Of a DNA stretch of 64,000 nucleotides, positions 3,960-34,086 are shown piece by piece. The notes beneath the pieces are model-generated. The model was not told the origin of the DNA. It made no database searches and was given only the letters and a program-made list of their open reading frames with translations. Both the position numbers and the translations under genes were made by a program. Each line of letters begins with the position of its first letter. Position 1 is the stretch's first letter. This DNA comes from Gammaproteobacteria bacterium (GTDB taxonomy: Bacteria > Pseudomonadota > Gammaproteobacteria > GCA-001735895), in contig JAAEMR010000174.1 of NCBI GenBank assembly GCA_024225395.1, positions 6,057 through 70,056 on the forward strand. The letters are read 5' to 3'.

Positions 3960-3964
3960 AATCC

Positions 3965-19272: not shown

Positions 19273-19290
19273 TTGGCATGATATCTGCAG
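19273..19290 (+). promoter_or_regulatory. Sigma-54 type promoter-like element TTGGCATGATATCTGCAG upstream of the biosynthetic operon
   Basis: TGGCAT-N5-CTGCA. Nearly identical to the element at 28150 (TGGCATGATCTCTGCAG). Confidence 0.5.
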
Positions 19291-19491
19291 AACCTGAATT
19301 AGATTTGAATTGGCTTCACCGTTTCGAACCGGATCGGTAGCTTAGGGCAAGGACATATGTGAACGTCTGTTAACAACCCTGCCGGAGTCAATACTGTTTA
19401 AATATGCAGAAAAAGCCGATTTTGCTGCAAGAAGACGGCTTATTTAATGCAGTATGAAAATGATTTTTTTAATTGAGTGAGGAATTTTTCT

Positions 19492-20379
19492 ATGCCAGAC
19501 GTATTCATTTTAGGTTTCACCAAGTGTGCTACGACCAGCATGTACAATCAGTTAATGCAACATGATGGTGTTTCCAATACCAAGCGCAAAGAACCTCATT
19601 TTCATTTCGTGCAGTTTATGGGCGACCGGTTCACAGGATCCGCAGATAACGACACGGTAAGCCAGATGTTTGTTACCGACCCCAGTCAATACCTAAATCT
19701 ATACGAACCTGGAAAGCTGAGTATCGACGGTTCAGCGATGTCGATCGAAGATCCACGTATCGTGGAGAATATCGACACACAGTTCCCGAAAGCCAGGTAC
19801 ATCATCATGCTTCGTGACCCCACTGATAGAGCCTTCTCCGCCTATTCACACCTGATACGCGATGCGCGTGAAACATGCGGCTTTCGTGATGCAATCGATC
19901 ATGAATTGAGCAATGCCCGAGAAGATCACATGCCGATCTGGCGTAACATCAAGTCAAGTCGGTATGTCGATGCGGTACAACATGCACGCAAGTTGCTGGG
20001 TGATCGACTCAAAGTAGTTGCCTATAGTGATTATGCCAAAAACAACAGGCAAACGATGGATGATATCGCCCGCTTTATCGGTTTGAACCCGATTGACTGG
20101 CGGCGTGACCACGCTAACCGCTCGGGTGTGCCTAACTCAAAGCTGTTCCAGAAGGTACTGATGCGTAAATCCCTGGCCAAGACCATCTTTGTCAATGCCT
20201 TTCCACAAAGCCTGGTTACATCATTAAAACGCAACCTGATGGAGCGCAATACAGGCGCAAAACCTGAGCTGACAGATGAGGATCGTACTTATTTTCAAGC
20301 CTGCATCGCTGATGAGATCGGCAAAATAGAACCGGGCACCCAGGACAGCGAATTGTTAAGGTCACTATACCGCGCATGA
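19492..20379 (+). CDS. Sulfotransferase-family protein
   Basis: 5'-PSB-like motif …FILGFTKCATTSMYNQL…. A 3'-PB-like region is also present (…IIMLRDPTDRAFSAYSH…). ATG at 19492 has GAGG 10 nt upstream; the ORF track uses an upstream GTG. Confidence 0.7.
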   Translation: MPDVFILGFTKCATTSMYNQLMQHDGVSNTKRKEPHFHFVQFMGDRFTGSADNDTVSQMFVTDPSQYLNLYEPGKLSIDGSAMSIEDPRIVENIDTQFPKARYIIMLRDPTDRAFSAYSHLIRDARETCGFRDAIDHELSNAREDHMPIWRNIKSSRYVDAVQHARKLLGDRLKVVAYSDYAKNNRQTMDDIARFIGLNPIDWRRDHANRSGVPNSKLFQKVLMRKSLAKTIFVNAFPQSLVTSLKRNLMERNTGAKPELTDEDRTYFQACIADEIGKIEPGTQDSELLRSLYRA

Positions 20380-21671
20380 CTGATACGAAGACAGCTTCGG
20401 CTGTTCCTCACATACTGTTTGGGATGTTTCTGCTGGAGATATTTTTCCTTTTTGTGAAAAAAATTGATGGAACACTGTATGGCGTATTCGACAATCTCGA
20501 AAAGCTGTATCCGGTAATTGCGATCCTGCTGTTGACCGCTTTTATGAAACTCAAGCTCAACTCTCATTGGTGGATGGCGCTGGGGTTTTACTCGGCCTAT
20601 CTACTATATGGAGTGTTGATCTCTTTAGCGCACCAGAAGGGAATAAAAATAATTCTGGTCCAGCTTTACCATGAAATGAAGTTCTTCCCGGTGATGTTCC
20701 TGTTTGCCATGGTGCGCTGTGATGACCGTTGGGCGAAGCTGACTCTGAAGGTTATCAAACCAATCATTATTATCACCGTAGTGCTGATTCTATTTCAGCT
20801 TGCGGCTCCGGGAGCCTACGATGCCATTTTTAAAAATGGTGGTCACTTTGAGAAAGGGCATTTTGGCGGAATGTTGTTGCCTCGCCTGGTAGGATGGTTC
20901 TGGCATCCGGGCCAGATCGCATTGTTTTTCCTGATTGCAGCCGTGTTTTTTATCGTCGAGTACCAGAAAGGCAGTATCAAGTTTGGTTTCTCGATGGTAT
21001 TCCTTTGTGTACTTTTTGTATTGCTGGCCATTCAACGCTTCGAACTGCTAATCCTTATCATTGTGCTGATGACCTTCTGGTTTCGGCGCTATATCAACCT
21101 GGATTATCGTCCCTATCTGGCTGGCCTGATCTTTATCCTTTTTTCGTCCAGCATTATCTATATCATTTCAGATGAAGCACACTTCTGGACACTGCTCGAA
21201 AATTTCAATTCACCACGAACCGTTTTTCTGGTTGAGGCTCTGTTCACGCTGGTCGAGAGCAACTACTGGGGGGCCGGATGGGGAACTATCGGCAGCCATG
21301 CGGCTGCAGATGTGGCCAATGTCTATGAATACAACGCTATGAAGGATCTTTGGTGGATTAAGCTCGGACAGTATTTCTACGATACCTACTGGCCCCATGT
21401 GATCGGTGAGACAGGTCTACCCGGCTTCTTTTTCCTGCTGTTGTCCATGGTTTTCATGATCCGTGCTTTTAGACGGCCGGAAGCCAGCATCCTGATGTTT
21501 GTCCTGATTCTTACCAGCGCACTGTCATCCAACGCCCAGTCACTATATCACCTGACGGTATTCGGCTGGTTCATCATGCTGCTGGAAAACACTGACAATA
21601 AAGAAGTCCCACATGAACCGGTGAAGATATCTGCATCTACATCGACTAACAATATAGGAGTTAAATTATGA
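20376..21671 (+). CDS. O-antigen ligase/polymerase-like (Wzy_C family) polytopic membrane protein
   Basis: About ten TM helices with a large loop. ATGA start/stop overlaps on both sides, indicating operon coupling. Confidence 0.7.
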   Translation: MTDTKTASAVPHILFGMFLLEIFFLFVKKIDGTLYGVFDNLEKLYPVIAILLLTAFMKLKLNSHWWMALGFYSAYLLYGVLISLAHQKGIKIILVQLYHEMKFFPVMFLFAMVRCDDRWAKLTLKVIKPIIIITVVLILFQLAAPGAYDAIFKNGGHFEKGHFGGMLLPRLVGWFWHPGQIALFFLIAAVFFIVEYQKGSIKFGFSMVFLCVLFVLLAIQRFELLILIIVLMTFWFRRYINLDYRPYLAGLIFILFSSSIIYIISDEAHFWTLLENFNSPRTVFLVEALFTLVESNYWGAGWGTIGSHAAADVANVYEYNAMKDLWWIKLGQYFYDTYWPHVIGETGLPGFFFLLLSMVFMIRAFRRPEASILMFVLILTSALSSNAQSLYHLTVFGWFIMLLENTDNKEVPHEPVKISASTSTNNIGVKL

Positions 21672-23191
21672 ACAGAAATAATCAGTTATCAGGGGTTGCC
21701 ATTGTGGGTACCCGGGCCCGCGGTGGAATTTACGCTGTGATCGAGAACCATATACAGGCGGGTGTGTATGAAGGCTATGAGCACTATTTCATCGCCTCAC
21801 ACGACGAAGTGGGCATAGTAAATCGAGTTATTCTGGCACTAACTTCCCTGTTCACCCTGATCAGCTTGATCATTCGAGGCAAAATATCAGTATGCCACCT
21901 GCATGGGTCGATGAAGGGAAGTATTTACCGTAAGTCGACCTTCGTCTTCGTGTGTCGTTTGCTGGGCTGCAAAGTTATTTTTCATCTTCATGGCTCGGAA
22001 TTTGCAAAAACCTATGAAAAAAGAGGTGGCATTTACAAACGCCTTGTCCGTTATGTGCTAAACCAGTCAGACAATGTCTTCGTACTTTCTGACTATTGGA
22101 AAACCTATGTTGAAACAATATCAGTTAACACTGAAATCCATGTCATAAACAACTTCCCTGCTCCAGTATATGAAACGCTCTACGACACCAGAGAATACTC
22201 TAAAAAGTCAACTACTGAGCTACTTTTCCTGGGGTACATTGGTCAACGTAAGGGGATTTACGACCTCGTTGAAGCTGTCGCTTTACTAAAGGCCAGAGGC
22301 ATTGAAGGGTTCCATATCAATGTCGGTGGTAATGGCGAAGTCGACAAACTCAAAGCACTGGTAGCAGAGAGGGATTTGACTCAATATTTTAACGTTATCG
22401 GCTGGGTTAGTGGCGATCAAAAGCACCAGCTCCTGAAACAATCTGATCTTTTATTATTGCCGTCACACAATGAAGGTCTGCCGATTGCAATCCTGGAAGC
22501 CATGTCAGCTGGTTTGGCAGTTTTAAGTACCAGGGTTGGCGGTATTCCCGATGCCATCAGCGATGAACGCTATGGTCTGCTGGTGGAACCGGGAAAACCT
22601 GAAGACCTGGCCAATGCAATCTCACGTTACCTGGACACTAAAGGACTGATCAAGTCGGTTACCAGAAATGCCCGCGAGCTGTATGACGAGGTTTACTCAG
22701 CTCAAGCCAACGTCGCTAAAATCAGAACTGTAATTGACAGGTTAAAACACAAACGAAAGAAAAAAGTACTCGCAGTGGCATCCAAGGGAGGCCATTCAAT
22801 TCAATTGATGCGTCTTAAACCTGTTTTGGATCAATATGATACAAGCTATGTTTCGAGCCAACATTACGATGGCATGGATAACTTTACCCGCGTAACAGAT
22901 GCCAACCGAAATTCTAAATTCCGCCTCATGCTGTTGTTCTTTCAGGTGTTATGGATCGTTATTCGAAAACGTCCAAACATTGTCATATCAAGTGGTGCTG
23001 CACCAGGGTACTTCACTGTACTTTGTGGAAAGCTACTCGGAGCAAAAACTATCTGGATCGATAGCATTGCTAACGCTGAGGAGTTGTCAATGTCAGGGCA
23101 ACGTGCTGGAAAGTTTGCTGACCTGTGGTTAACCCAATGGCCGGAAGTAGCGCATGAAAATGGCCCTAAATATGGAGGTCGTGTCCTGTGA
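21668..23191 (+). CDS. Fusion: GT4 (glycosyltransferase family 1) N-terminal domain plus Alg14-like C-terminal domain
   Basis: GT4 EX7E region …EGLPIAILEAMSAGLAVLSTRVGGIPD…. The C-terminal 140 aa (…KKVLAVASKGGHSIQLMRLKPVL…GAAPGYFTVLCGKLLGAKTIWIDSIAN…) resemble the Alg14/PssD/Cps14F membrane-anchor subunit. Confidence 0.7.
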   Translation: MNRNNQLSGVAIVGTRARGGIYAVIENHIQAGVYEGYEHYFIASHDEVGIVNRVILALTSLFTLISLIIRGKISVCHLHGSMKGSIYRKSTFVFVCRLLGCKVIFHLHGSEFAKTYEKRGGIYKRLVRYVLNQSDNVFVLSDYWKTYVETISVNTEIHVINNFPAPVYETLYDTREYSKKSTTELLFLGYIGQRKGIYDLVEAVALLKARGIEGFHINVGGNGEVDKLKALVAERDLTQYFNVIGWVSGDQKHQLLKQSDLLLLPSHNEGLPIAILEAMSAGLAVLSTRVGGIPDAISDERYGLLVEPGKPEDLANAISRYLDTKGLIKSVTRNARELYDEVYSAQANVAKIRTVIDRLKHKRKKKVLAVASKGGHSIQLMRLKPVLDQYDTSYVSSQHYDGMDNFTRVTDANRNSKFRLMLLFFQVLWIVIRKRPNIVISSGAAPGYFTVLCGKLLGAKTIWIDSIANAEELSMSGQRAGKFADLWLTQWPEVAHENGPKYGGRVL

Positions 23192-23661
23192 TTTTATTAA
23201 CAGTAGGTACTCAGTTGCCCTTCGATCGATTTGTTAAATTGGTTGATGAGTGGGCGTGTAAAAACCCCGAGGTGGAAATTCTTGCGCAAATCGCGAGTGG
23301 CACCTATACCCCAAAGCATATGGAGTATGTTGATTACCTGGATGAGAAAAGATATGCCGAAGTATTTGAAAAGGCAGAGGTTATTTTAGCCCATGCAGGC
23401 ATGGGATCGGTTATCAGTTCACTGATCGCCTCTAAACCCGTTATCGTTTATCCACGCAAAGCATCGCTGGGTGAGCACCGTAATGAGCACCAGTTGGCTA
23501 CCTGTCAGAAGCTATCCTACCTCAAGGGATGTTATATTGCCTACGAGCCTGAGGCGTTATTTACGACTCTTGATGAACTCAGTTCGCTGGAAGGTGGATC
23601 AATTAATCCCTATGCCAATGATGATCTGCTTGCAACTATCGATAATTTTATTGCCGGATAA
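23188..23661 (+). CDS. Alg13-like / PssE / Cps14G-like glycosyltransferase catalytic subunit (Glyco_tran_28_C)
   Basis: MILLTVGTQLPFDRFVKLVDEW…AGMGSVISSLIASKPVIVYPR…. GTG start overlapping the upstream stop (GTGA). Confidence 0.7.
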   Translation: MILLTVGTQLPFDRFVKLVDEWACKNPEVEILAQIASGTYTPKHMEYVDYLDEKRYAEVFEKAEVILAHAGMGSVISSLIASKPVIVYPRKASLGEHRNEHQLATCQKLSYLKGCYIAYEPEALFTTLDELSSLEGGSINPYANDDLLATIDNFIAG

Positions 23662-23684
23662 GTCTGGATGCAAAGGTCCTAATT

Positions 23685-24995
23685 ATGAATCACATCATGC
23701 GTCTTAGTTCCCGCCTGAGCGACCCGCATATACGAGAGGTCGTACTCGGTAGTCTTATTGGCCTGGGTATAAAAGTGTTGTCAGCGGTCAGTCTATTCAT
23801 TATGAATATGGTAGTCGCGCGAACTCTTGGTGCAGCAGAGGCGGGATTGTTTTTTCTTGGCTTTACTCTGGTCACTGTTGTTGCAGCCGTAGGACGCCTC
23901 GGCCTGGATCAGAGCCTTGTCCGTTTTATAGCTGCATCTAGTGCAACTCATTCAACCGGTGTACTGCATGGCGTTTATCGAAAATCAATAGGTTGGGTAG
24001 CCATCGCGAGTATCGGATTCGCTTTACTAGGCTGGATTAACACTGACCGTTTGGTTGAACATGTATTTAATCAGCCTGGTTTTGAACCCGTGTTGCGATC
24101 ATTTTTGATAGCAATTCCGTTGGTTGCTTTATACACCATGCATGCTCATGCGCTTCAGGGGCTTAAACAGATAGCAAAATCGATGTTGACGCTCAACGTT
24201 CTGGTGCCTGTTACACTGCTACTATTGTTGCTGATTGCCCCGGTAAAATCTGCTGATGCGGTTGCTAACTACTTCAATATCGCCTGTCTGCTCACATTGG
24301 GCACAGGCCTGTTGTTCTGGATTAAATCAGCACCAAAAACAGAAAAAGTAGAAAGTTTCTCCTCAACCCAGCTTCGTAAGACTTGCACTCCACTTTGGGT
24401 CGTCGCCATGTTATCGCAAGTGGTACAGTGGGCTCCGCAGTTGATGCTAGGTGCCTGGGCTTCTTCAGAAAATGTAGCCTTTTTTGCTGTCGCCCAACGC
24501 ACGGCGATGCTAACCAGTTTCGTTCTTTTTGCAGTCAATGCGATTGCCGCCCCTAAATTTGCCGCAATGCACGCGAAAGGAGATAGTGAGGGCTTGAAAC
24601 GCGTGGCAATCTGGTCTGTGCGTCTGATGTTATTGGCTGCGGTTCCTGCATTGATGCTGATGCTTTTGGCTCCTGAATGGTTGATGAGTTTTTTTGGTGA
24701 AGAGTTCCGTGCAGCATCGACGGCGTTGATGATCCTTGCTCTAGGTCAGTTTGTGAATATCGCAACGGGTTCTGTAGGTTATTTACTGAGCATGACGGGG
24801 CATGAACGTGATTTACGCAACAATGCGATCATTAGTGCAGTTATCGGATTGACGCTTGGTTTGGTTCTAATACCAGGTTATGGTTTGTTAGGCGCTACAG
24901 TTGCTACAGCGGTAGCGGTAGCCTCTCAGAACCTTTTAGGGGTTTATCAAGTCCGCAAACACCTTGGATTTAATACACTGGTGTTCTGGAAGTAG
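23685..24995 (+). CDS. Polysaccharide biosynthesis protein / Wzx-type flippase (MOP superfamily)
   Basis: 436 aa with 12 or more TM helices and the typical Wzx architecture. Confidence 0.75.
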   Translation: MNHIMRLSSRLSDPHIREVVLGSLIGLGIKVLSAVSLFIMNMVVARTLGAAEAGLFFLGFTLVTVVAAVGRLGLDQSLVRFIAASSATHSTGVLHGVYRKSIGWVAIASIGFALLGWINTDRLVEHVFNQPGFEPVLRSFLIAIPLVALYTMHAHALQGLKQIAKSMLTLNVLVPVTLLLLLLIAPVKSADAVANYFNIACLLTLGTGLLFWIKSAPKTEKVESFSSTQLRKTCTPLWVVAMLSQVVQWAPQLMLGAWASSENVAFFAVAQRTAMLTSFVLFAVNAIAAPKFAAMHAKGDSEGLKRVAIWSVRLMLLAAVPALMLMLLAPEWLMSFFGEEFRAASTALMILALGQFVNIATGSVGYLLSMTGHERDLRNNAIISAVIGLTLGLVLIPGYGLLGATVATAVAVASQNLLGVYQVRKHLGFNTLVFWK

Positions 24996-25100
24996 AGAAC
25001 ATTGATGTGTATACATCAGCCTTCACTCTAGCAGTATATTTCCCGGGACATCCCGATCTCGACAACACATTTTGCAATTTAATAATCACGTTGGTTAGCC

Positions 25101-26054
25101 ATGAGTGAATCAATACCAAAAATTACAGTGATAATACCGGCATATAATGCTGAGAAGACAATATGTCGTTCAATTGACTCGGCTCTACTTCAAAATGATA
25201 TCGACATCGAAATTATCATCATTAATGACTGCTCATCAGATTCCACTGAGAGTGTTATAAGGAATAGATACTCAGCATACAAGAATATAAAACTGCTTAA
25301 AACCAGGCGCAATTCTGGTCCGAGTGTGGCGCGGAATATGGGTATTGAAAATGCGACTGGAAACTGGATAGCATTACTTGATGCAGATGACTGGTTTGCG
25401 AAAAATCGCCTGTCAATACTCTATAAAAATGCATTAGAGTATGATCTCGATTTTATTGCTGATAGTTATCATTTGTGTAGCAGTGAGAATACAACGCCAC
25501 ACTCAGTTTGTTTTACCATTTTTTCTAAGCCTGATAGCTTAAAGGTGATCAGTAGTTCTCAGTTTGTTAGCAAAGGACTAGGTTCTGTAAAGCCTGTTAT
25601 CAAGAAGGAATTTCTTGATAACACCGGCATTCGCTTTAATCCGTTGGTATGGCGGGGCGAAGATATGATGTTTTTCGTAACATTATTAATTAATAATGCC
25701 CATTTCGGGTTATTAAATACACCTCTTTACTATAGGCAGGATACACTGGGTTCTCTTACAAAATCAGATAAAGTAATATTACTTACAGAAATGCATGAAG
25801 TATTTGTTGAGCTTCAGGAAATTGTTATTGCTGCAGGAAAGGAAGATGATGAAGTTATAAGCGCTTTGCAGTATAGAGCACATGTCGTTCAGGATACATT
25901 GGCAGCCGCTAAGTGGGAAATATGGATAAAAGATATGCCAAAGGTTACCAGCCTGTTAAATGCTGTTCGTCATGTATTATTTAAACGTAAGCGCTATCCA
26001 GTTAATAAGGCACGGAACGGAACTCAACTCACTAGTGCAACGGGTGGGATGTAA
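25101..26054 (+). CDS. Glycosyltransferase family 2
   Basis: …ITVIIPAYNAEKTICRSIDSALLQN…IIINDCSSDST… GT-A fold with a DxD (…LLDADDW…). Confidence 0.8.
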   Translation: MSESIPKITVIIPAYNAEKTICRSIDSALLQNDIDIEIIIINDCSSDSTESVIRNRYSAYKNIKLLKTRRNSGPSVARNMGIENATGNWIALLDADDWFAKNRLSILYKNALEYDLDFIADSYHLCSSENTTPHSVCFTIFSKPDSLKVISSSQFVSKGLGSVKPVIKKEFLDNTGIRFNPLVWRGEDMMFFVTLLINNAHFGLLNTPLYYRQDTLGSLTKSDKVILLTEMHEVFVELQEIVIAAGKEDDEVISALQYRAHVVQDTLAAAKWEIWIKDMPKVTSLLNAVRHVLFKRKRYPVNKARNGTQLTSATGGM

Positions 26055-26752: not shown

Positions 26753-27757
26753 TTACATGGCACCGCAGTCTTTGCTGAACACAACCCCCACCGTTTTGAA
26801 CAATAGCCTGAGGTCGTAGAGCTGGCTCCAGTTTCTCTGATATCGCAAATCCAGGCGAATGATGTCTTCAAAATCCTTGATCGAGGAACGACCATTCACC
26901 TGCCATTCACCGGTAATACCAGGTTTCACATCTAAACGGCGCCACTCGGGCACGTCATACTGATCAATCTCTTCCGCCGTGGGTGGACGTGTGCCCACCA
27001 GGCTCATGGAACCTTCGAGCACGTTCCAGAACTGGGGCAGCTCATCAAGGCTTGTACGTCTTAGAAAACGCCCTACCTTCGTAATTCGTGGATCATTTTC
27101 TGCTTTGAAAATAGCGCCTTTGGCTTCATTAACTACTTCGAACTTGCGAGCTTCCGCGTCCGGAACCATAGAACGAAACTTCCACAACTTGAATTTTCGT
27201 CCCATCCATCCACAGCGAGTCTGGCTGAAGAGCAAGGGTCCCGCCCCGTCACTTCTGATGGCAATCGCGATGGGAATGAACAATAAGCCGGTTATAAACA
27301 ACCCTAGCAGCGCACCAAAAATATCGACGACCCGTTTGATACGGGAGCGAACGGAAGCATGGGTCACAGGAAGCTTATCTGCTTCGTTTGAGACTGATGC
27401 AGATTCCATATTTTCCGATGACTCAATGTTGAGGACTCTGTTCAGCCCGGTCATGGTCAAGACCGCCTCTATCTGGGGTCTGAGACCACTGACCACGAGA
27501 TCAATGCCAGTGCTTTTCGACATCTTGATAGTGCTTACCAACGCTCCTATTCCACTGCTATCTAAAAAACTAGTTTTGGAAAAATCCAGGTTTACCTTGA
27601 GTGGCGGCACTTCAGTTTCACAAATAGATTTGAAGGTATTGTTAAACGGCACGGCTTCAACGACGGTAAATTCCTTGGGCATTTCGATGATCATGGCATC
27701 GGCACTCTTCGATATCTGGTAGTATTGACTTATTTCAATGTTTTGATTTTTTTTCAT
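26753..27757 (-). CDS. Fusion: N-terminal STAS (anti-sigma-factor-antagonist) domain plus C-terminal bacterial sugar transferase (priming glycosyl-1-phosphate transferase, Bac_transf/PglC-WbaP family)
   Basis: STAS: …IIEMPKEFTVVEAVPFNNT…LKVNLDFSKTSFLDSSGIGALVSTIKMSKSTGIDLVVSGLRPQIEAVL… with the DSSG phospho-Ser motif. Transferase: TM VVDIFGALLGLFITGLLFIPIAIAI, then …RKFKLWKFRSMV…DELPQFWNVLEGSMSLVGTRP…. Start ATG at 27757 with a GGAGAAG RBS. The 387-aa extended ORF is rejected because it would include its own sigma-54 promoter. Confidence 0.8.
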   Translation of the reverse strand: MKKNQNIEISQYYQISKSADAMIIEMPKEFTVVEAVPFNNTFKSICETEVPPLKVNLDFSKTSFLDSSGIGALVSTIKMSKSTGIDLVVSGLRPQIEAVLTMTGLNRVLNIESSENMESASVSNEADKLPVTHASVRSRIKRVVDIFGALLGLFITGLLFIPIAIAIRSDGAGPLLFSQTRCGWMGRKFKLWKFRSMVPDAEARKFEVVNEAKGAIFKAENDPRITKVGRFLRRTSLDELPQFWNVLEGSMSLVGTRPPTAEEIDQYDVPEWRRLDVKPGITGEWQVNGRSSIKDFEDIIRLDLRYQRNWSQLYDLRLLFKTVGVVFSKDCGAM

Positions 27758-27898
27758 GTAACTTCTCCAAAATACAGGTAACGTAACTAATCTGTTCTGC
27801 CTTAGGTCAGATATGGATAATTCCAATTTAAATTTCCACTGGATCACTGTTGGTTTAGTCGTATTGCTCACCCTTACAGTTTTCCATTGATCTATGCC

Positions 27899-27916
27899 TT
27901 GCAATGACTGTGCCAA
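27899..27916 (-). promoter_or_regulatory. Sigma-54 promoter TTGGCACAGTCATTGCAA (minus strand), perfect TGGCAC-N5-TTGCA, about 145 bp upstream of the STAS-sugar transferase start
   Basis: Exact match to the consensus -24 TGGCAC and -12 TTGCA with canonical spacing. Confidence 0.6.
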
Positions 27917-28149: not shown

Positions 28150-28166
28150 TGGCATGATCTCTGCAG
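28150..28166 (+). promoter_or_regulatory. Sigma-54 type promoter-like element TGGCATGATCTCTGCAG about 195 bp upstream of the SypE-like gene
   Basis: Near-identical to the 19273 element. Correct GG/GC spacing. Confidence 0.5.
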
Positions 28167-28358: not shown

Positions 28359-29933
28359 ATGGTTTCAGCAAAGCAACTTACTAAATCTGGAGATATAAAT
28401 TCAGTGAATCGTCTACTCATAGAAAACCAGCAACCGGCAACACTCGAATCCGTTCGTGAGCTACGCCATTTACTGGAACAGGTAACTCTGATGAGGGTTC
28501 CACAATCATTCATAAAAAAACGTATGCTGCTTTGCCTGTCAGAAGCAGCCACAAACCTGATACAACATGCTTCAACCAGGTTGAGTCAGATCACCATGCG
28601 TTTCGGAAAAAACAACACCGGCTGGTGGCTGGAAATTTTAGATGATGGCAATGCATTGGACCCAGCCAATGCAGTATTACCAAATAGTCTGGATAAATTT
28701 AGTGAATCCGAAAGTGATCGAGGTCTATCATTATTGAATAGCTTGTGTGACCATTTTGAATATCAGGCAGCCAGCAGTGGTAACGAGTTGAACAGACTAA
28801 GACTTCTGTGGAATAGCCCGGCACAGAATACTCGACCCCATATCCTTTTGGTAGAAGATGATAATTCCCTGCGTAAATTGTATGAACTTTACCTGGCAGA
28901 AACATTAGAAGTTACCACTGCAGCCAGTGGTCAGGAAGCATTATTGAAGCTAGAAACAGAGCAGATCGACCTGGTATTATCAGATATCTGCATGCCACAA
29001 ATGGATGGCATAGCATTACGCGAGCAACTGATCACAGACAGCAATTCACGCTTGATTCCTTTCATATTTCTAACTGCGATGGGTGATACTGCTCATGTTG
29101 AAAAAGCCACCAGTCTGGGTATTGATGACTATCTGACCAAACCGATAAAGAAAGAACAGTTAATCATAACCATTCAGCGTGTGTTGAAACGATCTGAGCA
29201 AGTCTACCAACAGTTGACTGACCGCATAGATGAGGGAATCACTTCTTCACTCGCACCCAGTGTACCGAAAATGAATAATAACTGGAATCTTGGCATCGCA
29301 AATCGTCACACTGGCAGCGGTGGAGGGGATCTTTTGTTACACCGGTCAGGCAAAGATTTTATGCAGATAATGCTCACCGATATCATGGGGCATGATGATT
29401 GTGCCAAATTTTTTGCTCATGCCTGTGGTGGCTATCTCAGAGGATTGATGAATGCCGCTACTTCAGATAGAAATCCTGCGAAGTTACTGGATCAAATGTC
29501 TGACTTTTGTCTACAGGATCAACTGATGTCAAAAATAACTCTGACCAGTTGCTCAGCTGTTTTATCGAATAACGGTGAGATCACCCTGGCCTGCGCCGGA
29601 CACCCACCGCCACTGCTAATCACCCCGAAAGGCATCAGCAAACTACAAGTCAGCGGTATACTACCTGGTCTGATTCCCGATACCAATTATCAATCGACAA
29701 CATTTAAGGTGGCGGCAGATGAAAGAATCGTCCTGTATACCGATGGACTATTTGAGTCTGCAGCAGATGAAAAACTTCGGCAACAACTAGAACAGCGAAT
29801 AACTTCAGAGCTCGTTAATACCCTGAATGACCCCATTGAACAGGCACTGGAAAAAATAATGGCCGTTTTTGATGAACTGGGGGGATCACCGCCTAAGGAT
29901 GATGTACTGTTGCTTTTAATGGCGCCGGTTTAA
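28359..29933 (+). CDS. SypE-like three-domain regulator: N-terminal RsbW-type Ser kinase (HATPase_c_2), central REC receiver, C-terminal PP2C/SpoIIE Ser phosphatase
   Basis: N-terminus …LCLSEAATNLIQHAS…WWLEILDDGNALDP…. REC …ILLVEDDNSLRKLYELYL…DLVLSDICMPQMDG…LTAMGD…. PP2C …GGDLLLHRS…DIMGHDDCAKFFAH…ACAGHPPPLLI…LYTDGLFE…. Confidence 0.8.
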   Translation: MVSAKQLTKSGDINSVNRLLIENQQPATLESVRELRHLLEQVTLMRVPQSFIKKRMLLCLSEAATNLIQHASTRLSQITMRFGKNNTGWWLEILDDGNALDPANAVLPNSLDKFSESESDRGLSLLNSLCDHFEYQAASSGNELNRLRLLWNSPAQNTRPHILLVEDDNSLRKLYELYLAETLEVTTAASGQEALLKLETEQIDLVLSDICMPQMDGIALREQLITDSNSRLIPFIFLTAMGDTAHVEKATSLGIDDYLTKPIKKEQLIITIQRVLKRSEQVYQQLTDRIDEGITSSLAPSVPKMNNNWNLGIANRHTGSGGGDLLLHRSGKDFMQIMLTDIMGHDDCAKFFAHACGGYLRGLMNAATSDRNPAKLLDQMSDFCLQDQLMSKITLTSCSAVLSNNGEITLACAGHPPPLLITPKGISKLQVSGILPGLIPDTNYQSTTFKVAADERIVLYTDGLFESAADEKLRQQLEQRITSELVNTLNDPIEQALEKIMAVFDELGGSPPKDDVLLLLMAPV

Positions 29934-30342: not shown

Positions 30343-30358
30343 TGGCATAGATATTGCA
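30343..30358 (+). promoter_or_regulatory. Sigma-54 promoter TGGCATAGATATTGCA about 65 bp upstream of the REC-PBP-HK-EBP operon
   Basis: TGGCAT-N5-TTGCA with canonical spacing. A TTCTCAA motif lies about 85 bp upstream. Confidence 0.55.
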
Positions 30359-30423: not shown

Positions 30424-30843
30424 ATGCTATTTGTTAACAATAAACAAAAAATACTGGTAATAGACGATGATGCCGGCCTGCGCAGACAGCTTAGCTTTCG
30501 ACTGGAAAAACGCGAAAGTCTCAAAGTCATAGAAGCAGAGAATGGACAGAGCGGACTGACTCAGGCCAACAATCAGAATCCTGATTTAATTATTCTCGAC
30601 TGGATGCTGCCGGACATTCAGGGCCCAGAGGTGCTCAATCAACTCAAAAATCATGATCAAACCCGTATGATTCCGGTATTAATGCTCACCGGGAAAAATA
30701 AAATTGGCGATATCGAAGATGCATTTGATCTGGGTGCTGATGCGTATTTAGTCAAACCCTTCAATTTGCAAGATTTGGCAGGAAAAGTGAATAAATTATT
30801 AAATCAGTCTAGCAAAAATGACATCCAATCCTATACTATTTAA
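30424..30843 (+). CDS. Single-domain response regulator (CheY-like receiver)
   Basis: …KILVIDDDAGLRRQL…DLIILDWMLPDIQGPEV…VLMLTGKNKIGD…LGADAYLVKPF…. Confidence 0.8.
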   Translation: MLFVNNKQKILVIDDDAGLRRQLSFRLEKRESLKVIEAENGQSGLTQANNQNPDLIILDWMLPDIQGPEVLNQLKNHDQTRMIPVLMLTGKNKIGDIEDAFDLGADAYLVKPFNLQDLAGKVNKLLNQSSKNDIQSYTI

Positions 30844-30865
30844 ACTACTTGCTGGAGATAACTGC

Positions 30866-31705
30866 ATGAAAACTCTTTTGACCATAACCATTCTTTTATT
30901 CAGCCTTACCTCCATAACCGCCCAGGCAGATGTAAATCTTAAATTTGGTGTTTATACTTCTGATAAACCCACAACGATGGTCAAAATGTTTCGCCCTATA
31001 CTCAACATACTTGAACAGGAAATGACAAATAAAATAGGCGAGCCTGTCAACATCACTTTGCATGTGGCTAAAAGCTATGATCAGGGTATCAATGACCTTG
31101 TTAGCGGACAGGTTGATTTTGCACGAATGGGGCCTGCATCCTACATCACCAGTAAAGAACAAAATTCTGAGCTGCAACTACTCGCGATGGAAAGCAAAAA
31201 AGGTAAAAAGGTATTTTATGGCATTATATGTGTTCAGGATCAAAGTCCAATAAACAAGTTAACTCAAATTAAGGGCCATAGCTTTGCATTTGGTGATAAA
31301 CGTTCAACCATCGGTCGTTACCTATCTCAATACCAGCTTGCACAACAGGGTATATATGCTAGAGATTTAAGCAGTTATGAATACCTGGGTCGACATGATA
31401 GAGTTGGCACCGCAGTTGGCGCAGGTCAATTCGATGCAGGTGCGCTCAAGGAAAGTACTTTTAAAAAGCTAAAAGCAAAAGGAGTAAAAATTCGTGAGAT
31501 CTCTCGATTTCCCAATGTCACTAAACCCTGGATTGCCAGTAGTAATTTGAATAAAAAATTATTTTCTACGCTAAAAGAAAGTTTGCTTGAACTTACCGAT
31601 GTCACGGCATTAAAAGTCTTAAAGAAACAGGGATTCCTTTCTGCCAGTGATGATGATTACAATATTATTCGCAAATCGATGTTAAGTAATGCCACTTTTT
31701 TCTAA
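30866..31705 (+). CDS. Periplasmic solute-binding protein, PhnD/SsuA-like fold; probable ligand-sensing partner of the adjacent hybrid kinase
   Basis: Signal peptide MKTLLTITILLFSLTSITAQA, then …LKFGVYTSDKP…FRPILNILEQE… typical of phosphonate-type PBPs. No ABC permease or ATPase genes adjacent. ATG at 30866. Confidence 0.65.
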   Translation: MKTLLTITILLFSLTSITAQADVNLKFGVYTSDKPTTMVKMFRPILNILEQEMTNKIGEPVNITLHVAKSYDQGINDLVSGQVDFARMGPASYITSKEQNSELQLLAMESKKGKKVFYGIICVQDQSPINKLTQIKGHSFAFGDKRSTIGRYLSQYQLAQQGIYARDLSSYEYLGRHDRVGTAVGAGQFDAGALKESTFKKLKAKGVKIREISRFPNVTKPWIASSNLNKKLFSTLKESLLELTDVTALKVLKKQGFLSASDDDYNIIRKSMLSNATFF

Positions 31706-31755: not shown

Positions 31756-34086
31756 ATGAAGCCTGCCCCTCAACCCTCTACTAAACGACGTTGGCCACTC
31801 TGGTCCCAGATGGCGCTGGCACTGGTAGCGGCCCTGCTGGTCGTTAACCTGATCACTGTTATTTTTACTCGCCATATAGTCAGTGATTTTACATTAGATC
31901 AGGTTGAGGAAATTAGCCGCAGCTCTTTTGCACTGCTAACCGCAACAGCCATCGATGCGGTGATTACTGAAGACATTCCACTACTGGAAACAATTGCTGC
32001 GCACTCACTAGAGAAAACACCCAGCATGATCAGTCTTAGAATGGAAAATGAACAGGGTAAGTTGCTGGCTCAACAATCACGTCCACAGACCACGGCCGAT
32101 GACAAGATACGCAGCTACCGTTATGCCATCAAATTCGAAGGTGAGCAATTCGGTACTTTAAATATCCGATGGGATATACAGCCGATTGAAACAAAGATCA
32201 ACAATCATGTTATCAAAGTCCAGCTGTTTATATCTGCCATGCTTATTCTGCTAACACTCCTCACGGTTATACTCATTTACTGGCTTAGCATTCGACCAGT
32301 TCACCGTATTACTCACTATCTAACTTTACTATCGAAAAATAGCCAGCAGTTACCCCTGAAACTGCCTGTTTTTACAAGTAGTGAACTGGAATTACTATCG
32401 ACCTCAGCCAATGAACTTTCTGAGATGATGCAACAGCAAGTTAAACGTGAAAGAGAGCTACTTTCAACACGGGAGGAACTGTTGATTGCCCATGATGAAG
32501 CTCTCAGTGCCAACCGGGCCAAATCGGGTTTCCTGGCGACTATGAGCCATGAAATACGCACCCCCATTAATGCCATACTGGGAATTCTGGGACTATTAAA
32601 AGACACTTCCCTGAGTGAATATCAACAGCAACTGGTACAAACAGGCCGTGGATCAGGTGAGCTTCTGCTAACCATTATTAATGATGTTCTTGACTTTTCC
32701 AAAATGGAAGCTGACAAATTACAACTGGAGTACAGTGGTTTTAATATCCATCACCTGTTTGCCCAGGGAATTGAAATTCTTAAGCACCAGGCCGATGAGA
32801 AGGGGTTAACTTTTATTCTTATTATGGATCCAGGCTTACCCCGTTATGCCAAAGGCGATCCGGATCGAATTCGCCAGATTTTGATTAATCTGATCAACAA
32901 TGCGATCAAATTCACTGCCAGCGGCTGTATTACCGTCAAAGTATCGCTTTTAAAAGATAACGATGAAAGTTTTTCATTACACTGCTCGGTACAGGATACC
33001 GGCATCGGCATCGACGAAGATCATCTGGCTGGTATTTTCGATGAATTTACTATGGTTGATCAAACTCATTCTCGGCATCATGAGGGATCAGGCCTGGGTC
33101 TGGCTATTTGCAATCGTCTGGTCAATCTTATGCAAGGCAGTATATACTGTGAAAGTGAACCGACAAAAGGCAGTATATTTTCCTTTAGTATTCAACTGCA
33201 GCACATACAGGAGGATGAATGTACCAATATTACAATTCCTATAGCTGAAGTTGCAACAATAATTCCGGGCAGAGATATTCGTATCCTGCTGGCGGAAGAC
33301 AATACAGCCAACCAGTTTGTTATCAAGAATATGCTGAAATACGCAGGTTTGCAGGTAGATATAGTTGCCAATGGCCTTGAGGCCGTTGAGGCTATTCGTA
33401 ACCTTCCTTATGATATAGTTCTAATGGATATTTCCATGCCGGAAATGGATGGTCTAACGGCCACTCAGGAAATTCGAAAATACCCGGAACCTGCAGGCAA
33501 ACTTCCCATTATAGCTATTACCGCTCATGCTCTGTCAGGAGACCGGGAGCGTTTTATTAATGCGGGCATGAATGATTACCTGAGTAAACCCATTGACCGC
33601 GATCTCATGCTGAACTGCATTGCACGCTGGACAAAGGATCATACCATTCATCAACATGACGAAAACAGCCTGCAACATTCGGATACCGATAATCTGCAAG
33701 CCAAAAATGAAGATCACTATGTTGATGAACAGGTATTAAAACAATTGGTACGTGATACTGACGCTGAAATAGTGCCAGAGATACTATTGTTTTACATTGA
33801 AGATGCTAAAAAAAGATCGCAATTAATTAGTCAGGCAATTACAGAAGATAATTTCAAGGCCCTGGAATTTGAAACACATACTTTAGGAAGCAGTGCAGCC
33901 GCTCATGGTAATGAAAAGCTGCATCAGCTAGCCCGTAAAATTGAACACAGCTGTAAACAATATAATTTAAAACAAGCCCTGTTAGAAGCGAAGACATTGT
34001 CTAATGTAGCCAATGAATCCTTTCGTCTATTGGCTCAATACGCTAACAAAGGGTTCAAGTCAGATAATTGGAAAATAAAAGAATGA
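31756..34086 (+). CDS. Hybrid sensor histidine kinase (TM-periplasmic-TM, HisKA, HATPase, REC, Hpt; SypF-like)
   Basis: H-box …SHEIRTPINAILGIL…. G-boxes …DTGIGI…GSGLGLAI…. REC …ILLAEDNTANQ…DIVLMDISMPEMDG…. Hpt …HTLGSSAAAHG…. Confidence 0.85.
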   Translation: MKPAPQPSTKRRWPLWSQMALALVAALLVVNLITVIFTRHIVSDFTLDQVEEISRSSFALLTATAIDAVITEDIPLLETIAAHSLEKTPSMISLRMENEQGKLLAQQSRPQTTADDKIRSYRYAIKFEGEQFGTLNIRWDIQPIETKINNHVIKVQLFISAMLILLTLLTVILIYWLSIRPVHRITHYLTLLSKNSQQLPLKLPVFTSSELELLSTSANELSEMMQQQVKRERELLSTREELLIAHDEALSANRAKSGFLATMSHEIRTPINAILGILGLLKDTSLSEYQQQLVQTGRGSGELLLTIINDVLDFSKMEADKLQLEYSGFNIHHLFAQGIEILKHQADEKGLTFILIMDPGLPRYAKGDPDRIRQILINLINNAIKFTASGCITVKVSLLKDNDESFSLHCSVQDTGIGIDEDHLAGIFDEFTMVDQTHSRHHEGSGLGLAICNRLVNLMQGSIYCESEPTKGSIFSFSIQLQHIQEDECTNITIPIAEVATIIPGRDIRILLAEDNTANQFVIKNMLKYAGLQVDIVANGLEAVEAIRNLPYDIVLMDISMPEMDGLTATQEIRKYPEPAGKLPIIAITAHALSGDRERFINAGMNDYLSKPIDRDLMLNCIARWTKDHTIHQHDENSLQHSDTDNLQAKNEDHYVDEQVLKQLVRDTDAEIVPEILLFYIEDAKKRSQLISQAITEDNFKALEFETHTLGSSAAAHGNEKLHQLARKIEHSCKQYNLKQALLEAKTLSNVANESFRLLAQYANKGFKSDNWKIKE

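Follow-up and report, generated by a model that had tools for sequence, protein, structure and literature searches.

Does a STAS (anti-sigma-antagonist) domain that is fused to the enzyme starting exopolysaccharide (EPS) synthesis control that enzyme directly? The question is raised by a 64,000-nucleotide stretch of gammaproteobacterial DNA (positions 6,057 to 70,056 of contig JAAEMR010000174.1, called the window hereafter) in which one gene encodes both domains. The original prediction, made from the letters of the DNA, took this fusion as a Rosetta stone: the partner-switch STAS module would gate the initiating transferase post-translationally, rather than a sigma factor, and by extension the STAS protein SypA of Vibrio fischeri would act on the sugar transferase SypR. 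The gene and the parts of its product are listed below.

26753 to 27757, minus strand: gene for a fusion of a STAS domain and a small monotopic phosphoglycosyl transferase (PGT), 334 amino acids plus stop (open reading frame, Pfam, homologs), with its ATG read at 27757
27763 to 27767, minus strand: ribosome-binding site GGAGA, 5 nt ahead of the fusion-gene ATG (read from the sequence)
27413 to 27718, minus strand: STAS domain (PF01740), residues 14 to 115 (Pfam E = 1.3e-14; Foldseek matches to TM1442, SpoIIAA, and RsbV)
27557 to 27559, minus strand: codon of S67, the first Ser of the DSSG motif and predicted phospho-acceptor (read from the sequence; invariant in 57 of 57 homologs)
27323 to 27376, minus strand: juxtamembrane linker LPxTHxSxxSxxKRxxD, residues 128 to 145 (conserved in 57 sequences)
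27257 to 27322, minus strand: hydrophobic helix, residues 146 to 167, predicted to be re-entrant (alignment, motif rules)
26777 to 27337, minus strand: Bac_transf domain (PF02397), residues 141 to 327 (Pfam E = 1.1e-64; WbaP and PglC matches)

Both Pfam profiles were found on the product, the STAS match scoring 54 bits against a cutoff of 22.6, and the two peptides quoted in the original prediction are present. NCBIfam models for anti-sigma-antagonists and for EPS polyprenyl glycosylphosphotransferases also matched, and TIGR00377 scored 49.5 bits on the STAS part, slightly below its cutoff of 53.45. SpoIIAA and RsbV are free proteins of ∼110 amino acids whose kinase partner holds a sigma factor; the STAS domain here instead forms one chain with a membrane enzyme. 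The AlphaFold2 model of the protein had a mean pLDDT of 80.8 and a pTM of 0.62, the five models spanning pLDDT 61 to 81. In Foldseek searches, its N-terminal domain resembled TM1442, SpoIIAA, and RsbV (TM 0.76 to 0.88, rmsd about 2 Å; STAS structures matched, 1th8, 6m36, and 1vc1), and its C-terminal domain resembled PglC (8e37; TM 0.78 normalised to the target, 36% identity). The catalytic domain also matched WbaP (E = 6e-44) and PglC (E = 2e-30) by sequence. D66-S67-S68-G69 is read from GAT AGC AGT GGA at 27551 to 27562, and the Asp-Glu dyad D238-E239 (of DELPQ) from 27041 to 27046. S67 appears to occupy the position of S56 in SypA and S74 in All4160; we take it to be the counterpart of SpoIIAA S58 as well, on the common D-S-S-G motif and a residue count along the SpoIIAA sequence. 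These matches confirmed, at the level of sequence and predicted fold, a SpoIIAA/RsbV-type STAS domain with a putatively phosphorylatable serine at the N terminus and a small PglC-type priming transferase at the C terminus. Linker residues 115 to 127 were disordered in the model, and the five models were inconsistent in how they docked the STAS domain on the catalytic domain.

The pairing of STAS and Bac_transf recurs widely, as a survey of genomes established. More than 100 full-length homologs of 318 to 346 amino acids share the architecture, and a genome scan gave at least 600 matches to the fusion protein, almost all cyanobacterial; the best 80 of these at least 600 matches were all fused STAS-transferase proteins. 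Cyanobacterial members share 50 to 61% full-length identity with the window protein, and XssP is 50.5% identical over residues 23 to 333 (E = 2e-110). Judged by sequence, the protein is thus a member of the All4160/All2285/XssP family, its membership resting on identity to XssP and its likeness to All4160 on architecture. In an alignment of 57 full-length homologs, from which all conservation counts are taken, S67, K141-R142, P162, D238-E239, and R257-P258-P259 are invariant (57/57). So are P130, T132, H133, S135, S138, K141, R142, and D145 of the linker, which lies mostly outside the Pfam Bac_transf match beginning at residue 141.

This fusion type is already known in cyanobacteria, where it has also been tested experimentally. 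The architecture was noted for all4160 in 2007, as quoted in a passage of PMC8256260; the term "STAS" is absent from a 2024 superfamily annotation paper on monotopic PGTs. All4160 is a STAS glycosyltransferase that the heterocyst polysaccharide layer requires (Wang et al. 2007; Harada, Matsuoka and Ehira 2026, PMC13555669), and it is switched off by phosphorylation of the serine equivalent to S67 (Mol Microbiol 2026, PMC13555669). The kinases Alr3423 and All2284 bind its STAS domain and phosphorylate S74 in vitro, deletion of alr3423 suppresses the henR defect, and the S74A substitution bypasses loss of the REC-SpoIIE phosphatase HenR, while induction of hepA and hepB persists in the henR mutant (PMC13555669). 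Thus, the predicted direct gating of the transferase stood as the best-supported reading, but its novelty did not, the fusion being widespread in cyanobacteria and its phospho-regulation having been published in 2026. Since gating at the priming transferase has been published for Anabaena, our gene adds a member to the family and not a mechanism.

What is new is the context, a fusion beside a Vibrio-type SypE regulator. Like All4160, the window protein begins with a STAS domain carrying a potentially phosphorylatable Ser and continues through a hydrophobic helix to a Bac_transf domain; both have ties to an RsbW-type kinase and a REC-SpoIIE phosphatase, and for both the proposed control is exerted on the enzyme, not on a sigma factor. 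In contrast to Anabaena, where HenR and Alr3423 are separate proteins, the window has both activities in one SypE-type protein beside the gene. The DNA comes from a marine gammaproteobacterium that is uncultured, and transcription of the gene is apparently sigma-54 dependent. A cyanobacterial-type STAS-transferase under a Vibrio-type SypE/sigma-54 cassette thereby links two literatures that had not been joined. XssP, the second point of comparison, is the priming glycosyltransferase for synechan, a sulfated EPS, and is encoded on plasmid pSYSM of Synechocystis PCC 6803 (Maeda et al. 2021, PMC8205485). It has the same two-domain architecture, and like the window gene it has a sulfotransferase gene in its Wzx/Wzy locus, but it carries DSAA, with the Ser kept, where the window protein has DSSG. 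Unlike the window, the xss locus has no kinase or PP2C genes nearby and is regulated by XssS, XssR, and XssQ (a STAND protein). The STAS domain of XssP goes unmentioned in the 2021 paper (PMC8205485). A profile search did not link the sulfotransferases of the window and of xss. An XssP-type primer beside a sulfotransferase outside the cyanobacteria suggests that sulfated EPS may extend beyond that phylum.

The genes around the fusion that bear on its regulation and on the polymer are the following.

28359 to 29933, plus strand: SypE-type tripartite regulator with RsbW-like Ser kinase, REC, and PP2C/SpoIIE phosphatase domains (Pfam)
10762 to 11166, minus strand: stand-alone RsbW-type serine kinase, 134 amino acids, second candidate kinase for S67 (Pfam HATPase_c_2, E = 1.1e-21)
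30424 to 30843, plus strand: single-domain (REC-only) response regulator (Pfam; 69% identical to its L095 equivalent)
30818 to 31705, plus strand: periplasmic Phosphonate-bd family protein, paired with a sensor kinase (Pfam)
31756 to 34086, plus strand: hybrid histidine kinase with HisKA, HATPase, REC, and Hpt domains, in the SypF position (Pfam; 60% identical to L095)
34068 to 35486, plus strand: sigma-54-dependent response regulator, in the SypG position (Pfam; 80% identical to L095)
19477 to 26054, plus strand: EPS structural operon (Pfam)
14640 to 17477, minus strand: Wza-type outer-membrane polysaccharide export protein (Poly_export plus SLBB; Pfam)

The EPS operon encodes a sulfotransferase, a putative Wzy, a GT1-Alg14 fusion, an Alg13-like protein, a Wzx flippase, and a GT2 enzyme; the putative Wzy is a 431-amino-acid protein free of Pfam matches that we name by its position and hydrophobicity. 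The SypE-like gene that was predicted some 600 bp away is indeed there, divergent from the fusion gene and with its first ATG 601 bp from the fusion-gene start, although gene callers and homolog lengths suggest that the true start may lie about 15 codons downstream. Pfam placed HATPase_c_2 at residues 26 to 144, REC at 162 to 272, and SpoIIE at 335 to 521. On inspecting the sequence and an alignment ourselves, we recognised the N-box and G-box of the kinase, the context of the REC acceptor Asp, and the PP2C motifs (GGD, DxxGHD, TDG, and DD). A PDB sequence search with this protein returned only REC-domain matches among the 60 matches listed. The second kinase, which shares 46 to 48% identity with the kinase encoded in L093, a related locus, did not figure in the original prediction, nor did the sigma-54 promoter ahead of the fusion gene. 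By gene content, therefore, a cognate kinase and phosphatase are present in the window as candidates for action on S67. Among open reading frames of at least 60 amino acids in the 64 kb, the fused STAS domain is the sole one.

We evaluated how far such linkage extends in the best 80 of the at least 600 genome matches. An RsbW-type kinase gene lies directly downstream of the fusion gene in 19 of these 80 loci, as counted with a profile seeded from the window and further loci and Pfam-confirmed on three; a profile seeded from the window alone was too insensitive (0/80). Six of the 80 loci have a PP2C gene as well. Neither a kinase nor a phosphatase occurs within 10 kb in the other 61, nor in seven of nine gammaproteobacterial loci, so linkage in cis is not the rule. 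The related gammaproteobacterial locus L093 has a kinase gene and a separate REC-PP2C gene.

Two promoters complete the picture of the region next to the fusion gene and the regulatory cassette.

27900 to 27915, minus strand: exact sigma-54 -24/-12 promoter TGGCACAGTCATTGCA, 143 nt upstream of the fusion-gene ATG
30343 to 30358: sigma-54 promoter with one mismatch, ahead of the REC-only gene at 30424 to 30843 (motif scan)

Exact sigma-54 sites number three in the window, against about 0.06 expected from base counting, and all are intergenic and face a gene. With one mismatch allowed in TGGCAC-N5-TTGCW, three more sites were found, all six being correctly placed, and sites like that of the fusion gene precede most other operons of the locus from 6 to 35.5 kb. 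One perfect copy of the SypG enhancer TTCTCANNNTGMDWN and several imperfect ones lie in the expected intergenic regions, but the motif is not enriched over the whole window (20 occurrences versus 16.5 in shuffle controls). Between 26000 and 28400, terminators and sigma-70 promoters did not rise above shuffle controls, and an Rfam scan of the whole window gave no matches.

We consider it probable that sigma-54 transcription and phospho-gating at S67 of a family-member transferase together explain the control of EPS initiation at this locus. The fusion enzyme would start a Wzx/Wzy-type, possibly sulfated, exopolysaccharide, its N-terminal STAS domain serving as a cytoplasmic phospho-switch. The hybrid kinase/Hpt protein (31756 to 34086) would activate the sigma-54 regulator (34068 to 35486), which probably drives the fusion-gene promoter and the similar sites at other operons. 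Either the SypE-type protein, through its kinase domain, or the kinase at 10762 to 11166, or both, would phosphorylate S67 and thereby turn the transferase off. Phosphorylation of the REC domain of the SypE-type protein through the same phosphorelay would then let the PP2C domain dephosphorylate S67 and EPS initiation proceed. Which kinase modifies S67, that phosphorylation inhibits, and how the STAS domain influences the catalytic domain are inferences on our part; for the direction of the switch and for the REC state favouring the phosphatase, we follow All4160 and V. fischeri SypE. Direct post-translational gating of the transferase, as opposed to a sigma factor, appears best supported because of the All4160 experiments and of the kinase genes found directly downstream in the 19 loci. 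[quoted passage not shown] There too a phospho-signalling protein controls EPS synthesis post-translationally at the priming transferase, but EpsW is a REC protein that acts in trans on a large PGT and promotes its dimerisation, whereas in the window the regulator would be a STAS domain that is part of the small PGT itself. Nothing in our results tied the REC-only protein of the locus to the transferase.

Stand-alone RsbW-type kinases are typically anti-sigma factors (SpoIIAB, RsbW), and the window encodes one at 10762 to 11166. Classical partner switching could therefore operate, in which the tethered, unphosphorylated STAS domain sequesters an RsbW-type kinase (the 134-amino-acid protein or the N-terminal domain of the SypE-type protein), the output passes through the other partner of that kinase, e.g., a sigma factor, and the transferase itself is ungated. 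Free STAS paralogs adjoin the fusion gene in the related loci L085, L087, L091, and L092 (48 to 53% identical to the window STAS), which looks like competition for a shared partner. However, no sigma-70-family gene was found among the open reading frames scanned from 1 to 52.8 kb. In Anabaena, an S74A allele of the enzyme restores polysaccharide synthesis, and the phosphatase mutant still induces hepA and hepB; in V. fischeri, SypA comes after SypE in the genetic order and exerts its effect at a level beneath transcription. Together, these observations make partner switching with an ungated transferase unlikely.

Direct phospho-gating would also fail if the STAS domain were a constitutive structural module, serving dimerisation, membrane targeting, or ligand binding as in SLC26/SulP, with the SypE-type protein acting on an unlinked SypA-like protein. 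STAS domains do occur in many multidomain proteins that have no known kinase, and the large PGTs WbaP and EpsZ are controlled through dimerisation. Since most related loci (61 of the 80) have no linked kinase, the STAS partner of the SypE-type protein could be encoded elsewhere, and our view covers 64 kb of the genome. In contrast, the DSSG motif with S67 is invariant in all 57 homologs, as a kinase substrate requires, XssP retains the Ser within DSAA, and about a quarter of the family loci have the kinase gene immediately adjacent. Moreover, the SypA-D block that usually precedes sypE is absent from the window, and the gene immediately upstream of the SypE-type gene is that of the fusion, in divergent orientation. 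A purely structural role for the STAS domain is thus improbable.

Control of S67 by the kinases of the locus supposes that the STAS domain faces the cytoplasm. PglC-type enzymes have a re-entrant helix with both termini cytoplasmic; the sequence rules for such helices are a Lys-Arg dyad and a break at Ser-Pro, of which a branched-chain residue followed by Pro is an accepted variant (Entova et al. 2018). Like PglC of Campylobacter and WbaP of Salmonella, the window protein has an Asp-Glu dyad, a PRP motif, and a Lys-Arg dyad ahead of the membrane helix; unlike them, it adds the N-terminal regulatory domain and the conserved linker. Residue 161, ahead of the invariant P162, is I, V, or L in 56 of the 57 sequences, but this proline falls four residues, i.e., one helical turn, past the PglC/WbaP register, and AlphaFold2 modelled helix 139 to 170 as unbroken. 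On the re-entrant-helix rules, we argue that both domains are probably cytoplasmic, a topology that the unbroken model helix and the offset proline leave as a prediction. If the hydrophobic segment instead spanned the membrane, the STAS domain would be periplasmic and beyond the reach of cytoplasmic kinases. The 2026 preprint discusses a periplasmic STAS domain as a possibility for All4160 and leaves the topology open, and in the window protein the hydrophobic stretch of 22 residues, the continuous model helix, and the shifted proline would suit such a segment. Yet the protein has no N-terminal signal sequence, so that a folded N-terminal domain of 125 residues would have to cross the membrane, and invariant K141-R142 and a net charge averaging +2.2 both lie on the N-terminal flank of the helix. 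The STAS domain of All4160, moreover, is phosphorylated by cytoplasmic kinases with genetic effect. A spanning segment is accordingly very unlikely, and the sequence rules bear on the question that the Anabaena authors left open.

That the fusion is an assembly or frameshift artefact of two genes is hardly conceivable, since the same 334-amino-acid product is called in a continuous frame on six independent contigs (in the four places shown, each from a different sample, the nucleotides differ from the window at 0 to 3 positions, all synonymous), the length and architecture are common to hundreds of homologs, and the linker between the domains is itself highly conserved.

We then compared the locus with Syp by way of syp-order loci from other genera. 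The Syp system of V. fischeri comprises SypA (STAS), SypE (kinase-REC-phosphatase), SypF, SypG (sigma-54 activator), and SypR (sugar transferase), and the kinase-REC-phosphatase architecture has been described as unique to SypE (PMC10120452). The window likewise has a protein of SypE architecture followed by a hybrid kinase with Hpt and then a sigma-54 activator, and its EPS operons are likewise preceded by sigma-54 promoters. This regulatory cassette keeps the gene order of the syp-order loci and is 45 to 80% identical to theirs: against L095, L096, and L097, respectively, identities are 62, 51, and 45% for the SypE-type protein, 60, 58, and 48% for the hybrid kinase, and 80, 64, and 64% for the sigma-54 regulator; the REC-only protein, compared with L095 and L096, is 69 and 56% identical. 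The position of the Phosphonate-bd gene is conserved in L085, L087, L091, and L095 to L098.

The remainder of the locus differs from Syp. In the syp-order loci, one of which is from a member of the Vibrionaceae, genes for a STAS protein, OmpA, Wza, and a protein of roughly 240 amino acids precede the SypE-type gene; free SypA proteins have 105 to 116 amino acids. The window, in contrast, has no free SypA and no orthologs of SypB, SypC, and SypD in the expected position, its STAS domain is attached to the transferase, and its structural EPS genes are different. OmpA-family and Wza-type genes occur elsewhere in the locus and are 20 to 32% identical to the syp-order versions. The fused STAS domain shares partial identity of 22 to 37% with the stand-alone STAS proteins of the syp-order loci, and the whole protein is of the cyanobacterial type; we therefore rejected it as a SypA ortholog. 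We also rejected orthology of the whole locus to syp, on the few matches to a syp-like locus of Plesiomonas, which were confined to the SypE-type protein, the transferase domain, one GT4 glycosyltransferase (29% over 189 amino acids), and, weakly, the Wza-type protein. When the plasmid collection was searched for syp loci of Vibrio, the only returns were from Plesiomonas and, on a Vibrio replicon, an RsbU/V/W-like module that is unrelated.

The target of SypA was still described as unknown in 2023. We consider it possible, though less likely than not, that the window presents a fused state of the Syp circuit, in which case unphosphorylated SypA would bind and activate SypR in trans. This suggestion rests on the retention of the syp-like cassette with SypA missing and the sole STAS domain sitting on the transferase, on the small transferase gene that lies zero to two genes upstream of the free STAS gene in L088, L096, and L098, and on the control that a cyanobacterial STAS domain exerts on its own attached enzyme. 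In the syp-order loci, the transferase gene comes before the STAS gene, opposite to the domain order of the fusion. Because the STAS domain of the fusion is no ortholog of SypA, action of SypA on SypR is plausible but unproven: of the extension made in the original prediction, the SypE-type cassette is retained, but the step from the fusion to SypA is by analogy. SypR nevertheless becomes a concrete candidate target, and if this reading were true, SypA would act on the first enzyme of SYP synthesis.

In L093, a further transferase, of the WecG family, carries two STAS domains and a NUDIX domain in the same chain. In a wider version of this reading, STAS tags may mark several glycosyltransferase steps for one kinase/phosphatase pair.

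The gene at 26753-27757 on the reverse strand had been read as a natural fusion of a STAS domain to the priming transferase of an EPS locus, and this observation is confirmed. GGAGA stands ahead of its ATG start, and the 334-aa product matches Pfam STAS over residues 14-115 (E=1.3e-14, well over the gathering score) and Bac_transf over residues 141-327 (E=1.1e-64), with NCBIfam models agreeing on both domains. A longer ORF starting at TTG and reaching 27916 was rejected as unsupported, since it overlaps a promoter element and disagrees with the homolog lengths (mostly 332-337 aa). In the AlphaFold2 model (57 homologs as input; mean pLDDT, 80.8), the C-terminal half aligns structurally with PglC and WbaP, the N-terminal half with TM1442, SpoIIAA, and RsbV. 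The DSSG motif is D66-S67-S68-G69; since it shares the D-S-S-G register of the phosphoserines that are, by our own count, S58 of SpoIIAA and S56 of RsbV, S67 is the predicted phospho-acceptor.

Alignment of 57 sequences revealed invariant residues in the STAS domain (E34, T62, F64, D66, S67, S68, G71, and K78), in the linker (P130, T132, H133, S135, S138, K141, R142, and D145), in the hydrophobic helix (P162), and in the enzyme (D238-E239 and R257-P258-P259). Mean identity to the window protein was 59% for the STAS domain versus 83% for the enzyme among gammaproteobacterial sequences and 41% versus 70% among cyanobacterial ones. The STAS domain is less conserved than the enzyme, yet its phospho-site is absolutely kept. 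Both this site and the catalytic residues of the transferase are intact in the window protein.

More than 100 full-length proteins carrying both STAS and Bac_transf domains came up in a homolog search. The nearest (65-77% identical) belong to uncultured gammaproteobacteria and Chromatiaceae (Marichromatium and Rhabdochromatium), and the remaining ones (56-62%) to a wide range of cyanobacteria; a full-length match on a Streptomyces plasmid is 39% identical. The fused architecture is present in at least 5 separate 50%-identity clusters. Scanning one genome per species gave at least 600 matching stretches, the best 80 of which comprised 79 from cyanobacteria (by title, a few MAGs by presumption) and one from Rhabdochromatium; STAS and transferase were fused in 80/80. 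XssP, encoded on Synechocystis plasmid pSYSM, is 50.5% identical to the fusion protein over residues 23-333 and is the priming transferase for the sulfated EPS synechan (PMC8205485).

The all4160 architecture of Anabaena was remarked on in 2007, as cited in a 2021 review (PMC8256260). Harada, Matsuoka, and Ehira (2026, PMC13555669) reported that the heterocyst polysaccharide layer requires All4160 and the REC-SpoIIE phosphatase HenR, that two RsbW-type kinases bind the All4160 STAS domain and phosphorylate it at S74 in vitro, and that the henR mutant, in which induction of hepA and hepB transcripts persists, is rescued by All4160 S74A, its defect being suppressed by deletion of one RsbW-type kinase gene, alr3423. 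The same study names All2285, which adjoins the kinase All2284, and XssP as All4160 homologs and describes the STAS-transferase architecture as widespread among cyanobacteria. The window protein belongs to this family, in which the equivalent STAS serine controls function. The original prediction of a partner switch working directly on the transferase that initiates synthesis is right in substance; its core had already been published for this family with the All4160/HenR work in 2026, so it is not new in principle.

The EPS locus spans ~6.0 to 35.5 kb between flanks of unrelated metabolism genes. It encodes an epimerase, a DUF6923/GEVED/DUF4842 protein, an OmpA-family protein, and a Wza-type exporter. 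Its EPS operon, on the strand opposite to the fusion gene, encodes a sulfotransferase, a putative Wzy, a GT1-Alg14 fusion, an Alg13-like protein, Wzx, and a GT2. A regulatory block encodes SypE-type, REC-only, and Phosphonate-bd periplasmic proteins, a hybrid kinase with Hpt, and a sigma-54 response regulator. A stand-alone kinase, missed in the original prediction, adjoins a NUDIX gene.

Features of the EPS locus
10762-11166, reverse strand: stand-alone RsbW-type kinase, 134 aa (HATPase_c_2, E=1e-21)
11454-12020, reverse strand: NUDIX gene, with an exact sigma-54 promoter ahead of it (12054-12069)
19477-20379, forward strand: sulfotransferase, heading the EPS operon
21668-23191: GT4-type glycosyltransferase with Alg14-like domain, 507-aa ORF
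23188-23661: Alg13-like (Glyco_tran_28_C) gene, after the GT4-Alg14 ORF
28359-29933, forward strand: SypE-type gene (RsbW-like kinase, REC, SpoIIE/PP2C phosphatase)

The fusion gene is flanked by genes for a kinase/phosphatase and has a sigma-54 promoter ahead of it. The pattern TGGCAC-N5-TTGCW has 3 exact matches in the window versus ~0.06 expected, each intergenic and gene-facing, one of them 143 nt upstream of the fusion-gene ATG (27900-27915); six more sites, with 1-2 mismatches, lie ahead of other operons. The nine sites (7050-7065, 10464-10479, 12054-12069, 12208-12223, 18982-18997, 19274-19289, 27900-27915, 28150-28165, and 30343-30358) describe a predicted sigma-54 regulon across the EPS locus. 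An element resembling TCAGAATGCATTGCAATATGC is common to three intergenic regions and is similar to the SypG (TTCTCANNNTGMDWN) and LuxO enhancer motifs; elements of this kind showed no statistical enrichment. Among bacteria, sulfated EPS is considered a cyanobacterial speciality (PMC8205485); the sulfotransferase and the XssP-type primer hint at sulfated EPS in gammaproteobacteria, and a profile search gave no link between the window sulfotransferase and the Xss sulfotransferase.

In a search with an enriched kinase profile, RsbW-type kinase genes (145-215 aa) occurred in 19 of the 80 best genome loci, starting from ~40 bp before to 900 bp past the fusion-gene stop; Pfam confirmed HATPase_c_2 on three sampled kinases. 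A PP2C gene was also present in 6 of these 80 loci, and three carried the string fusion-kinase-PP2C-free STAS-REC. We compared nine gammaproteobacterial loci (the window, L005, L085-L087, and L090-L093). A tripartite SypE-type gene adjoins the fusion gene in one, the window; in L093 a kinase and a REC-PP2C protein are encoded by separate genes, alongside its own STAS-transferase fusion; and three of the nine had no regulator nearby. In four others, free STAS proteins (134-138 aa) are encoded directly upstream of the fusion gene.

STAS-containing and sulfotransferase genes in related loci
L085, 9516-9929: free STAS
L087, 9520-9936: free STAS
L091, 5871-6287: free STAS
L092, 9529-9933: free STAS
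L093, 7555-8475: sulfotransferase, beside Wzx
L093, 12856-14925: WecG/TagA-family glycosyltransferase with two STAS domains and NUDIX, 689 aa, beside the REC-SpoIIE phosphatase and RsbW-type kinase

The free STAS proteins of L085 and L087 are 48-53% identical to the fused STAS of the window and keep DSSG, and those of L091 and L092 were identified by Pfam/profile only. All four look like a duplicated STAS domain, which might compete for the same kinase; no kinase and no SypE-type gene was found within 10 kb in these loci. The window 134-aa kinase is 46-48% identical to the L093 kinase and the window NUDIX protein 47% identical to the NUDIX end of the L093 WecG-STAS-STAS-NUDIX protein, and the window pair has the look of a split version or a relic of the L093 module. 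The representative protein P0203 is a partial protein of the WecG-STAS-STAS-NUDIX type. From the L093 protein, STAS tagging may reach a second glycosyltransferase step.

The kinase-REC-phosphatase architecture has been called unique to SypE of V. fischeri (PMC10120452). The window SypE-type protein has the same tripartite architecture. Of its 290 homologs (E<=1e-20), 120 were listed; almost every one of these is tripartite, and those named are from marine Gammaproteobacteria. SypE controls SypA, a 105-aa STAS protein (Ser56) that is active when unphosphorylated and acts below transcription, on what was in 2023 "an as yet unknown protein target." We read four syp-order neighbourhoods: L095, L096 (Psychromonas), L097 (Parasalinivibrio, Vibrionaceae), and L098. 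Their order is free STAS, OmpA, Poly_export/SLBB, a ~240-aa protein, SypE-type, an optional REC-only, Phosphonate-bd, hybrid kinase/Hpt, and sigma-54 regulator, followed in L097 by glycosyltransferase genes and Wzx; it corresponds to the V. fischeri order sypA-B-C-D-E-F-G.

Identity of window proteins to their counterparts in L095, L096, and L097
Sigma-54 regulator: 80%, 64%, 64%
Hybrid kinase: 60%, 58%, 48%
REC-only: 69%, 56%, none
SypE-type protein: 62%, 51%, 45%

The fused STAS domain shows 22-37% partial identity to the free STAS proteins, confined to the surroundings of the F(L/I)DSSG(I/V)GA motif, and identity between the transferase domain and the small transferases in the SypR position is 36-38%. 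Since identity is high in the cassette and low in STAS and transferase, the window combines a syp-type regulatory cassette, a cyanobacterial-type STAS-transferase, and different structural genes. The block from SypA to SypD is missing; in its place, divergent and upstream of the SypE-type gene, stands the fusion gene. In three loci, a small transferase (SypR position) lies 0-2 genes upstream of the free STAS (SypA position).

Transferase-STAS regions
L088 (Plesiomonas plasmid), 15615-16603
L096, 3781-6223
L098 (uncultured relative), 2079-4280

The V. fischeri order runs from sypA to sypR, and these loci are circularly permuted relative to it. The fusion gene offers a bridge to the open question of the SypA target: that SypA acts on SypR is a reasonable and testable hypothesis by extension. 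No SypA-SypR link is made in the papers we found, including both versions of Harada et al. 2026; V. fischeri is mentioned generally in the preprint and is absent from the published version (PMC13555669).

In the mechanism that we propose, S67 would be a substrate of the SypE-type N-domain, the 134-aa kinase, or both, and its phosphorylation would switch the transferase off. Phosphorylation of REC via the hybrid kinase/Hpt relay would lead the PP2C domain to dephosphorylate S67, and the same relay would activate the sigma-54 regulator, so that transcription and enzyme activity would be switched together. The STAS domain might act on the catalytic domain by docking, by control of dimerisation, through which WbaP and EpsZ are controlled, or by recruitment of later enzymes. 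The AlphaFold2 model showed no stable arrangement between the two domains; the invariant juxtamembrane LPxTHxSxxSxxKR linker is a candidate coupling element. Alternatively, the tethered STAS domain could mainly titrate an RsbW-type kinase, with the real output elsewhere, which we consider unlikely; we give the same low weight to a constitutive structural role of the STAS domain, with the SypE-type protein serving an unlinked SypA.

The preprint of Harada et al. raised the possibility that the inter-domain helix places the All4160 STAS domain outside the cell. For the window protein we regard a periplasmic STAS domain as very improbable: the sequence features that mark the PglC re-entrant helix (Lys-Arg dyad ahead of it, Pro after Ser or a branched-chain residue; Entova et al. 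2018) have counterparts in K141-R142 and I/V/L161-P162, the N-terminal helix flank has a net charge of +2.2, the protein has no signal peptide, and neither a signal nor a membrane segment is evident in the regulators when their sequences are read by eye. On the other side, P162 lies one helical turn later than the Pro of PglC and WbaP and AlphaFold2 shows a continuous helix, so we infer rather than demonstrate that both domains are cytoplasmic.

An artefactual fusion is a negligible prospect, given that gene calls on six contigs yield the identical protein, that the four places listed come from four samples whose copies of the fusion gene differ from the window by 0-3 nucleotides, all synonymous, and that the inter-domain linker is strongly conserved. 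In locus L001 (metagenome sample JGI 3300021186), an otherwise near-identical SypE-type gene carries 31-bp and 18-bp insertions at about window positions 28626 and 29541 and is split into two broken gene calls, the fusion gene being intact. Either the insertions arose through misassembly or the gene has naturally lost its function; some V. fischeri strains are reported to carry natural frameshifts in sypE. The L001 gene calls also include a separate 147-aa Alg14 gene, the GT1 region being otherwise absent among the genes listed, so the GT-Alg14 fusion call may hinge on start-codon choice.

The source of the window is an uncultured marine gammaproteobacterium. The window sequence also occurs in GCA_024449705.1, where the contig accession JAANSU012224858 implies millions of contigs, and GCA_024449465.1 and GCA_024232655.1 contain relatives. 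Such records point to contigs of bacterial origin within host-genome or other very large assemblies, and the source is possibly a symbiont. Genes for a BCCT transporter, ETF-QO, corrinoid methyltransferase/RACo, MTHFR, and FTHFS lie at 37-48 kb, consistent with use of methylated amines or betaine.
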